Notes under the pieces: model-generated
Seen by the model: only the letters and a program-made list of their open reading frames with translations
Database searches by the model: none
Told to the model about the DNA's origin: nothing
NCBI GenBank assembly: GCA_001244265.2
Contig: CDLV01000004.1
Coordinates: forward strand, 1,116,001-1,180,000
Reading direction: 5' to 3'
Length of the DNA: 64,000 nucleotides
DNA from: Microbotryum violaceum
Taxonomy: Eukaryota
Shown here: piece after piece, positions 13,797 to 16,700 of the stretch
Numbering within the stretch: the first letter of the stretch is position 1
How the letters are laid out: every line of letters begins with the position of its first letter
Made by a program: the position numbers and the translations under genes

Positions 13797-16700
13797 TGTG
13801 ACAAGTCCACTCTCAGCTCGGCAGAGGCGCCTCGGTCGGTGCGCGCACATCCGCTAGCCCGCGCCCCTGCGCTGGGGACTTAGACGCGCGCGACTGACTC
13901 AGCGCGCCAGCGCCGGGTGGGTCCGTGCGCGTGCCCACTAGGCCGCCCCCTTGCGGTGGGGACTTAGGCGCGCGCGACTGCGTTAGCGCGCTAGCAACTT
14001 CACCCGCGACTGGGCCTATCCAGCGCGGGTCCCCTTTCTATTTCTTAGCTTCCCTCTCACCACTTCTGTTCAACAATCGACCTCTCCTGACAGTAGTGGT
14101 GATTGTCTCATAGGTTATTCGCCCATCGACCTACTCGCTGGCATGGACACGTCGTCGCCCCTAACGACGGGTGCCCACCACACGATCCCCGCCGAACAGC
14201 TCGCCGCACTTACGTCGCTGCTGTCGGGTCTCACCACTGCCACATCCGCCACGTCGTCCGGCACCTCTCGCCCCGCCTTTCCCAAGCACGCACGCTTGGA
14301 TGGCGCCCAAGACGTTTGCGAGCTGGACACGCCAGCTTCGCCTCTGCCTCGCGGACGACATCCGCTCATACGTCCTCGACGGGATTGTGCCCGCGACTGG
14401 ACACCTTCGCACCGCTCTGCCCGCGATGTCGTGGCACGTGAGCTCCTAGCGAACTCGATCGACTCAGCCGACATCTCGGCAGTCCTCGACCAAATCCCTA
14501 CCGCCGACCTCACAGCGCCCAAAATGTACTCGACGCTGAAATCGCGGTATGCTCCTGACGACGCCACTCGCACGCTCGAGCTCTTCTCCCGACTGTGGAG
14601 CTTCCGGCCCATGCCTGGCACCGTTGGCGAATTCGACGGCTGGATCATGGAGTTCAAAGCTATTGCGCAAGAAATCATCGATACGAAGACCACGATCAAC
14701 GATGTTCTCGCCACACTCCTCCTCGCCATCGCTCACCCGTCCCTCGAGAGTTTCAAGGCGTCGTTCACGATGAACAGCGCACTCAACGATCTCTCCCTGC
14801 TATCGATTCGCTCGCCGAACCGCATGCGTGTTCAACTCCGGTCCACCAACGTCCCCAGCACCCAATCGGCCCTTCTTGCCTCGTCGTCGTCACGTCCTAC
14901 ACGTCCCAAGTGTCTCGCCTGTCGCAGCCCTTCGCACCGTGTGGCGGAGTGCCCTGTGAGAGCGACACACCGCCGCCAGGACCCTGTCGCTCCTGCAAGC
15001 AGAATCACTGGTCTTTCGACTGCAAAAAGGCTCTCGGAACAGCAAAAAGGCCGACACGGCGAACTCGACCGCCGACTCGCAACACCATGTCGGATGTATC
15101 GCCACCGGTCTTCTCGCTCGTCGCCGCCAGCTTCGCACCAACTCTTTCGTCGTTGACTCGGGGCCACCTCGCACATGGTCTCGGACAAGTCGCTGTTCAC
15201 GACCTATCGCCACATCGCTCCCACAAAGATTGGAGGCATTGCAGGGGGCATCAACGCCATCGGAACGGGAAACATTGCCTTCGTTGCCGCCTCGGGCCAT
15301 CCGATCACGCTCACTGGCGTGCTGCACACTCCCGGCCTGTTCGTAATCTCCTCTCGGTCTCTCGACTTTGCGACACCGACGACGTCCGTGTTGCCTTCAC
15401 GAAACACGGCATTGACATCACCAAAGACGGCAACAACATCGCTGAAGGCACGAGGCTCGACGAGGGACTCTACTTGCTGGACGCTGATCATTCCAAATGT
15501 CAGCATCTTGCTCTCCTCTCTCGTTCACAGTCTTCCGTGCCCCTGCTGACTCTCCACCGCTGCCTCGGCCATCTCGCACCGTCGTCCATACAGAAGATGG
15601 TTGCCGCTGGTTTGCTGAGGGGTCTCGGGGCCGGATATAGTGACGAAGAGGTAGAGAAGTTTGTCTGCAATGCTTGCCTTAGTGCCAAGGGCCATCGTCT
15701 TCCTTTCCCCGATTCGGATTCGCACTCATCGAGAGGGACTCGGCCTGGTACACAGCGATGTGCTTTCCCTCCCGGAGCGTTCCTTGACTGGCAAACGATA
15801 CCTGGTCACGTTCCTCGACGACTACTCGCGCAAACTGTGGCCTACGCAAGTCGGACATAAAAGCGAAGTCTTCAGTGTGTCAAGACTTGGCTTGCGAGGT
15901 CGAGCTCGAGACAGGTGCAACACTGAAGGTCCTCCGAACTGACAATGGTGGCGAGTATTGCTCGAGAGCTTTCACGGAGTTCTGCAAGGTGCGAGGTACG
16001 CGTCGACAATACTCTATCCCTCGCACGCCTCAACAAAACGGTCGGGCGGAGCGGCGTCAATCGTTCCATTGTTGAAGGTATTCTTGCCCTTCTGGCGGAC
16101 GCCCATCTACCCAAGACATTCTGGGAGGAGGCTGCGGCTTACTTCGTTTACTGCAAGAACCTGGTTCAACACTCGGCTCTCGACAAGGCAACACCGAACT
16201 CGGTCTGGCAGGGCGGACGCACTACAGCCTCCGCGCTTCACCCGTTCGGCTGTGCGGCTTGGCTCACGGTCGCGCCCGAACTTCGCTCTAAACTCGACCC
16301 GAAAGCGGTTCGCGTTCTGTTCACGGCTACGACTTGGCTTCCAAAGCCTTCCGCTTCTACGACACTACAACAAAGAAGGTCACCCTGGGCAGAAATGCCA
16401 CCTTCCTCGACACCGAATTCCCCGGGTTATGTGGCGACTCTGCGATCCAGACGATGACACGCACTTCGCCAGCACTCCCTTCGCCGACCCTAAACCACCG
16501 TCAAGTCATGGACCCCACTAGTAAGGTCGGCGCACATGGACGTCTCATCCCCTCTTGATGATTCTTCCATGAGCGCCGTTGACGTGGCCCCAGGGTACAC
16601 TGGCGGATCCTTACTTAATTCCACAGATGCCGAATCGCCCGCGTCACCGTCGCCTGCGCCGTCCTCGTCACTGTCTCCTGAGCCGGCCTCGTCCCCTTCG

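Follow-up and report, generated by a model that had tools for sequence, protein, structure and literature searches.

A conserved, intron-like 106-nt segment between integrase and reverse transcriptase in Ty1/copia elements of Microbotryum violaceum

Ty1/copia retrotransposons with a single open reading frame (ORF) need some way of controlling their expression, and in the known solutions, those of BARE1, EVD and Drosophila copia, splicing always takes place at gag/protease. Here, an intron-like segment of 106 nt between integrase (IN) and reverse transcriptase (RT) is described in the Ty1/copia elements of a 64,000-nt stretch of Microbotryum violaceum DNA (contig CDLV01000004.1, positions 1,116,001 to 1,180,000). 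This whole stretch is called the window, and all coordinates refer to it. BARE1 of barley carries an alternatively spliced, frameshifting intron of 104 nt, shown by cDNA, at the end of gag; a stop three codons past the junction leaves Gag only, and new genomic copies are made from the unspliced RNA alone (PMC3735527). In EVD and other Arabidopsis Ty1/copia elements, splicing takes place around the protease (PR), and a U1-like 5' splice site is conserved. The copia introns average about 300 nt in Arabidopsis and about 3 kb in Drosophila, and their splicing is coupled to premature termination (PMC5580714). An intron within pol of the legume Ty3/gypsy element Ogre is mentioned in PMC3735527. Gene expression in Cryptococcus requires introns, and SCANR recognises transposon RNAs that are poorly spliced there (PMC5851062, summarising Dumesic 2013).

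The Microbotryum segment is like the BARE1 intron in being an intron-like unit of about 100 nt in a single-ORF copia element, the removal of which would leave the downstream part of pol untranslated. The Gag-only splicing strategy of copia, BARE1 and EVD is not what is found here, since the segment lies outside the gag/protease region and no prompt stop follows it. In EVD and Drosophila copia, the splice signals are adapted to the host and retention is needed for full-length RNA. The segment resembles them in its host-like 5' splice site; their introns, in contrast, are centred on the protease, and in them the position of the site is conserved rather than about 106 invariant nt. In Ogre, stops within the intron interrupt the ORF, and splicing is needed to restore pol. 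The segment is like this intron in lying between pol domains; it differs in that its frame is open without splicing, which would disrupt pol. As with the SCANR targets of Cryptococcus, the host is a basidiomycete and the transposon transcripts would contain weak introns, putative in the present case, with which the spliceosome engages. SCANR, however, is a read-out of host defence and predicts no conservation of the intron by the element itself. Literature searches on Microbotryum copia introns and retrotransposon splicing, which covered papers rather than their supplements, returned no description of this element, and nothing on it stands in the available portions of PMC4469406 and PMC2020487. 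If the segment is an intron, it would be a new version of the known copia splicing strategies, differing in its position and in the absence of an early stop. A conserved, frame-open and structure-embedded intron between IN and RT of a fungal element would then be a different solution to expression control. It would also be a tractable case of a retroelement keeping an intron that it cannot afford to splice efficiently. In related basidiomycetes, expression is intron-dependent and stalled splicing serves to detect transposons.

The first 40 kb of the window consist of nested Ty1/copia elements of three families, A, B and C. The segment is found in the four copies of family A (A1 to A4) and in the copy of family B:

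16521..16626, + strand: segment in A2, the focal copy; 106 nt, GT..AG, in the pol frame between the integrase SH3-like domain and RT
8789..8894, + strand: segment in A1; one C>T change, giving a G-U pair in the closing stem
32530..32635, - strand: segment in A3; three changes, and the ORF 33220-31718 (protein P0001) reads through it unspliced into RT
37148..37252, + strand: segment in A4; 105 nt, one C gone from a CCCC run, so that the frame is shifted in A4
23532..23637, - strand: segment in the copy of family B; differs from A2 at five positions, flanks about 75% identical or unalignable

These are the five copies of the original prediction, which had placed all of them exactly, including the 105-nt copy of A4 with one C missing. 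Each A or B copy contains the segment once, and the rest of the window has none. Pattern searches allowing up to three mismatches returned five matches each, against 0.00–0.01 expected from shuffles. The 106-nt copies differ from each other at 1–7 positions (A1–A2, 1; A2–A3, 3; A2–B, 5; A3–B, 7). The segment peptide corresponds to residues 195–231 of P0001, 33 residues after the SH3-like domain and about 170 before RT. The pol frame runs unbroken through the segment in the copies without private indels (A1, A3 and B), and the same peptide is found in public full-length polyproteins of 1543–1595 residues among the matches listed. With no stop in this frame, the full Gag-PR-IN-RT can be encoded by the unspliced RNA. 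A2 itself is dead, as a 1-nt deletion near 16491 creates an in-frame TAG at 16519–16521, and A4, with its segment one C short, is also dead. By eye, the segment is rich in short palindromes (ACTAGT, GACGTC, GGATCC and GTAC).

The conservation of the segment was followed in a sliding profile of A against B over 132 windows of 100 nt. The two families are 0.94–0.96 identical on the segment, and no 100-nt window outside its neighbourhood exceeds 0.86. The identity is 0.65–0.86 along integrase, RT and RNase H and falls to 0.19–0.5 in the linker directly downstream, so that the near-identity claimed for the segment, set in a linker that cannot be aligned, stands out as a unique spike in the profile. 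The conservation ends 2 nt past the AG of the segment. On its upstream side, one more stretch is conserved:

16494..16520, + strand: conserved stretch upstream of the segment (ACCACCGTCAAG..GGACCCCACTA); 23/27 positions identical between A2 and B, counted by hand on the alignment

The comparison of A3 with B codon by codon gave a proportion of synonymous differences (pS) of 0.105 (3.0 of 28.7 sites) and of non-synonymous differences (pN) of 0.049 in the segment. In the upstream integrase (194 codons), pS was 0.595 and pN 0.209. The constraint (or shared ancestry) therefore acts on the nucleotides and not on the peptide, the synonymous difference, which had been put forward as a check, being about six-fold lower than that of integrase. 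The ratio pN/pS is 0.47 in the segment and 0.35 in integrase. The codon usage of the segment is the least coding-like of the element, with a score of –0.156 that none of 250 background windows reaches (mean 0.166, sd 0.103), and its GC content at third codon positions is 0.54, compared with 0.67. Its two ends hold the rarest codons: CTA-GTA-AGG at the donor (5%, 9% and 6% of their synonymous families) and TTA (2%) in the branch region. Across species, the segment peptide is 0.91–0.97 identical to that of the window, and the 37-residue flanks on each side are 0.31–0.78 identical (51 occurrences). Within family A, between host species, the values are 0.95–0.97 for the segment and 0.59–0.78 for the flanks (n = 8). 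The variable positions of the peptide are the same everywhere, 12, 17 and 31. The 10 variants among the five copies would about match a post-insertion decay of 1–3%. Judged from these alignments, the conservation of the segment is beyond chance.

The splice-like signals that had been claimed are all present. The junctions read CTA/GTAAGG and CACAG/, the tail is pyrimidine-rich, and CTTAAT, a branch motif by sequence likeness only, lies at 16614–16619. The distance from its first A to the end of the CAG is 9 nt. For comparison, the introns of one host gene in the window were used:

48275-50301, - strand: host MT-A70 (m6A methyltransferase-like) family gene; last exon Pfam E 4.8e-12

Removal of its three introns (49966-49899, 49831-49754 and 49620-49549; 68, 78 and 72 nt) restores an ORF of 524 residues with the family motifs. 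The donors are G/GTAGGT, G/GTATGT and G/GTACGT, and the branch-like motifs, read by eye, are CTAAT, CTCAC and CTGAG, 9–21 nt before YAG. The donor of the segment fits the three host donors from +1 to +5. The GC content is 0.557 in the segment and 0.47–0.54 in the three host introns. When the listed positions were compared, the GTAAG of the segment was the sole GTRAG found kept in the sense strand of A2, A3, A4 and B. The public Microbotryum gene models contain 105 occurrences, of which 47 have a junction right after TPL (CTA/GT), 50 retain the segment and three use the next GT. These are automatic predictions with varied in-frame acceptors, and all that can be read from them is that the donor is favoured by a trained splice model. 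As a separate observation, the inverted ends at 16519–16628 make the antisense strand likewise intron-like, GTAAGG...CCTTACTAG.

Diverged versions of the segment are found in M. intermedium. Nine of ten matches from this species have the anchor; seven have the junction right after TPL, one is ambiguous and one retains the segment. The retaining model differs from a near-identical neighbour by an in-frame block of 38 codons that begins with Val (GTN) and ends with Gln. Two versions, P0090 and P0132, the latter added by a search of representative proteins, differ from the segment of the window at about 40–45% of residues; the interior is less well conserved than their ends (VR.., ..NSTD) and MDV. 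A search for further versions of this type with residues 728–782 of P0090 returned P0090 alone. Exact and degenerate DNA patterns of the segment gave no match in metagenome, viral or prokaryote-genome contigs, and a peptide-guided scan of metagenome contigs gave 507 pattern matches, none of which was confirmed.

In the RNA, the isolated 110 nt have a three-helix minimum-energy fold of –41.1 kcal/mol (z –3.07), in which AGUAAGG/CCUUACU encloses GGCGC/GCGCC, CAUGG/CCAUG and CAUC/GAUG. The parts of the predicted fold are:

16520..16526, + strand: 5' strand of the closing stem, AGUAAGG; includes the putative 5' splice site CTA/GTAAGG, three rare codons
16609..16615, + strand: 3' strand of the closing stem, CCUUACU; overlaps the branch-like CTTAAT at 16614-16619, and the putative acceptor CAG ends at 16626
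16528..16578, + strand: hairpin 1, CGGCGC.CAUGGA..CAUC loop GAUG..UCCAUG.GCGCCG, 18 pairs; the most context-robust helix
16588..16606, + strand: hairpin 2, CCCCAG..CUGG.GG, 6 pairs

The predicted fold is kept in all five copies, and the segment ranked 3 of 250 windows in a fold scan of A2 (z –3.74). The closing stem is strongly predicted (0.69–0.97) for the excised unit only, and the pairing of hairpin 1 falls to 0.05–0.5 in several copies with at least 120 nt of flank. As an alternative to the closing stem, the upstream CCACCGUCAA can pair with UUGACGUGG inside the segment. This alternative stem (upstream CCRCCGUCAA with UUGACGUGG) has a probability of 0–0.69, and the donor is then mostly unpaired (0.32–0.75). 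It had been claimed that most differences between the copies fall in loops or give G-U pairs. This holds for 7 of the 10 variants (four unpaired and three G-U; two others break one pair and one is a deletion), but the distribution is no different from chance and contains no compensatory change. The proposed Rfam check yielded nothing meaningful at E up to 10: the single match, on the opposite strand, was a chance-level one to an unrelated lncRNA model (E 0.96; 19.4 bits against a gathering score of 45). Separately, two windows of A2, both on the + strand, exceed the segment in folding stability when each is compared with its shuffles, one in the 5' LTR (13996–14105, z –5.6) and the other in the protease/pre-integrase region (15436–15545, z –3.8).

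The reading that most economically joins the observed position, nucleotide-level conservation, non-coding-like codons, splice-signal likeness and foldability is that of a retained, weak intron. We tentatively favour it as a plausible account that may well be wrong: the segment may be a short intron of the spliceosomal type in the pol ORF of one Microbotryum Ty1/copia clade, embedded in structure and mostly retained. Any splicing, and the effect that it would have, we infer from the sequence. The host machinery would read CTA/GTAAGG, the branch-like CTTAAT and the CAG acceptor, and these signals would dictate the sequence of the segment, the hairpins setting their accessibility. Removal of the 106 nt would shift the frame after integrase and leave RT-RNase H untranslated, and the unspliced RNA would double as genomic RNA and as mRNA for the full Gag-PR-IN-RT. 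Candidate pay-offs are an RT-less isoform or unproductive splicing. Another is that engagement of the spliceosome or U1 might license the expression of an RNA that has no other introns, in a basidiomycete host that depends on them.

Several points weigh against this retained-intron reading. Splicing alone does not explain the invariance of about 106 nt over the whole length. The donor differs from the three host donors at –1 (A) and +6 (G), the segment is longer than the only three host introns measured (106 nt against 68, 78 and 72), and its GC content is not below that of the upstream flank (0.557 against 0.565). None of the five window copies precisely lacks the 106 nt, and none of the 105 public protein occurrences has a frameshifted junction. 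The junctions of the gene models use many different in-frame acceptors, and these models were presumably made without RNA-seq for repeats. Unlike in BARE1, the site lies between IN and RT, 85–326 codons without a stop follow, and splicing is putative; unlike in EVD, there is no early stop after the putative junction in the Microbotryum elements. The openness of the shifted frame over these 85–326 codons is not above that of codon shuffles (p 0.11–0.13), and we know of no use for a Gag-PR-IN product with a long nonsense tail. The pairing of the donor next to the branch site, which had been proposed as part of the fold, is indeed in the minimum-energy structure of the isolated 110 nt. It is lost with at least 30 nt of flank, the probability of the closing stem being about 0 in A1, A2 and A4; in A3 and B it is 0.27 and 0.12 at 30 nt and 0–0.01 beyond. 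The covariation check, made on the five window copies, found changes on both sides in 0 of 31 pairs; 27 pairs never vary, and the five sequences are too alike for a test. Moreover, the antisense strand folds as well (z –2.87).

The shifted frame deserves a separate comment. As the length of the segment is 3n+1, its removal would lead into an Arg-rich frame, which after the putative junction is open for 326, 85, 212, 188 and 168 codons in A1, A2, A3, A4 and B. The original prediction gave about 190 codons for this frame. The shift itself stands and A4 has 188 codons, but the length varies by copy in a shuffle-like manner. The Arg-rich reading is a trivial shifted reading of the Ser/Pro/Ala-rich linker. 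An overlapping ORF in this frame was considered and rejected, since B lacks an ATG for it, A and B do not share it as a conserved feature, and it is of ordinary length. In the Ser/Pro-rich linker directly after the segment, an imperfect 24-nt tandem repeat (16642–16705, + strand; 2.7 copies, 75% matches) was also seen.

A possible alternative, on the unlikely side, is that the segment acts in cis as a structured element of the genomic RNA and is not spliced at all, its GT..AG ends being by-products of the AGUAAGG/CCUUACU helix. Its possible roles are host-factor binding or export, a decoy U1 site protecting the long transcript, help in packaging or dimerisation, or an RT pause site. Such an element would account for the invariance over the whole length and at all codon positions, and the stability above shuffles (z –3.07 for the isolated unit; z –3.74 and rank 3/250 in the scan) and the robustness of hairpin 1 in most contexts are consistent with it. 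The upstream stretch that pairs into the segment suggests alternative conformations. The same sequence in families whose own proteins differ by 25–30% would point to a host partner rather than an element-encoded one. On the other hand, Rfam offers nothing at E up to 10 beyond the chance-level lncRNA, none of the 31 pairs covaries and the antisense strand folds equally well. Hairpin 1 drops to 0.05–0.5 in several copies at 120 nt of flank or more, and the M. intermedium versions differ greatly. Nor does a cis-acting element explain that the block ends exactly at a YAG after a branch-like motif, or that the only conserved GTRAG of the element stands at the start of the block.

It is rather doubtful that the near-identity of A and B reflects mainly a short-patch exchange between co-resident families, by template switching of co-packaged RNAs or gene conversion, with little or no function. 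The hairpin, by making RT pause, may promote such patch exchange. Recombination itself is well indicated by the sequence comparisons. Two M. saponariae polyproteins, P0012 with an A-type and P0019 with a B-type integrase, have an identity of 0.38–0.65 directly before the segment. Over a stretch of about 500 residues that starts with the segment, their 40-residue windows are at least 0.85 identical (to 1.00) except two at 0.70–0.72. The relationship is chimeric, different integrase types being joined to nearly the same segment, linker and RT, and the jump in identity places a crossover at the segment. A2 and A3 are 0.98–1.00 identical at about 15945–16170 (about 225 nt) and 0.78–0.9 elsewhere, a mosaic that implies recombination among A subfamilies. 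The integrase tree groups the M. intermedium elements with A and excludes B (support 90/65). The segment is discordant with this tree, since B has the segment of A and the M. intermedium versions are diverged. In addition, the peptide variants at 12, 17 and 31 are common to both families within a species. The alignments thus mark the segment as a crossover point at which recombination occurs, and for the copia families abundant on the Microbotryum mating-type chromosomes it provides both a sharp marker and a recombination junction. Even if it were a recombination patch only, it would still document modular exchange between diverged retrotransposon families.

Exchange, however, is not the whole story. 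An A-B exchange with equal identity extending into the flanks had been named as the scenario that would explain the conservation away. The M. saponariae crossover and the discordance with the integrase tree speak for exchange, but in the window the A-B identity spreads into neither flank, and at the 5' edge fixed and free positions are intermingled, with no clean tract. Variation falls on the same three peptide positions in every lineage. Exchange cannot act between host species, yet family A keeps the segment there too (the 0.95–0.97 against 0.59–0.78 given above). Furthermore, neutral exchange does not predict the most aberrant codon usage of the element.

An improbable further idea is that the segment is an autonomous RNA module. 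The released three-helix RNA, or the engagement of the spliceosome, would be the functional product, acting in trans or by licensing, and the module would spread by template switching at its own hairpin. The idea comes from the closing stem, which reaches 0.69–0.97 only without flanks, as in an excised intron. A module shared by the copia families of one host would explain both the invariance over the whole length and the host-specific versions. A peptide function at the C-terminus of integrase, for example in targeting or as a site of protease cleavage, would fit the open frame and the peptide conservation of 0.91–0.97 across species, but is very improbable as the sole cause, given synonymous sites about six-fold more conserved than in integrase, a pN/pS of 0.47 that is no lower than the 0.35 of integrase, the use of rare codons and the difference of the M. 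intermedium versions at about 45% of residues.

Other candidates were rejected. A central polypurine tract or a function like that of a primer-binding site does not apply, as the polypurine tract is the G run at 18579–18587, unrelated to the segment. For a MITE-like insertion with 7-bp inverted ends, neither a target-site duplication nor solo copies were seen in the window. Inspection by eye for a snoRNA, ribozyme or frameshift site revealed no D box, no ACA/H box arrangement and no slippery site, and Rfam gave no support.

The elements around the segment are as follows:

13796-18902, + strand: element A2, the focal carrier; long terminal repeats (LTRs) 13796-14115 and 18587-18902, 97.8% identical
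about 5589-11219: element A1, family A Ty1/copia
30202-34401, - strand: element A3, family A Ty1/copia
34400-39583: element A4, family A Ty1/copia; LTR pair 97.2% identical
21414-24557, - strand: family B copy, truncated
25387-28958, + strand: family C copy, a degenerate third copia family

The carriers belong to Ty1/copia, as direct LTRs enclose the internal region and integrase precedes RT. The A4 ORF contains the domains Pol_BBD, gag_pre-integrs, rve and SH3_retrovirus, and the order in P0001 is rve, SH3_retrovirus (residues 95–162) and RVT_2 (from residue 412). In the protein search, 117 of the 120 best matches were polyproteins of M. saponariae, M. silenes-dioicae or M. intermedium, which places the host in this genus of anther smuts. 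The family C protein is 25–57% identical to the A-type probe; its IN-RT linker (in 25387–28958) is full of stops, and no counterpart of the segment was found there. B-like fragments at 12276–13798 and 39583–40388 are 87–90% identical to each other and to B at 21414–23022. The first of them stops at the start of the A2 LTR, which is consistent with the insertion of A2 into an older B-like copy. An ORF at 42381–43331 (- strand) with a weak Asp_protease_2 match (E 2.8e-4, under the Pfam cut-off) may be a remnant of another retroelement.

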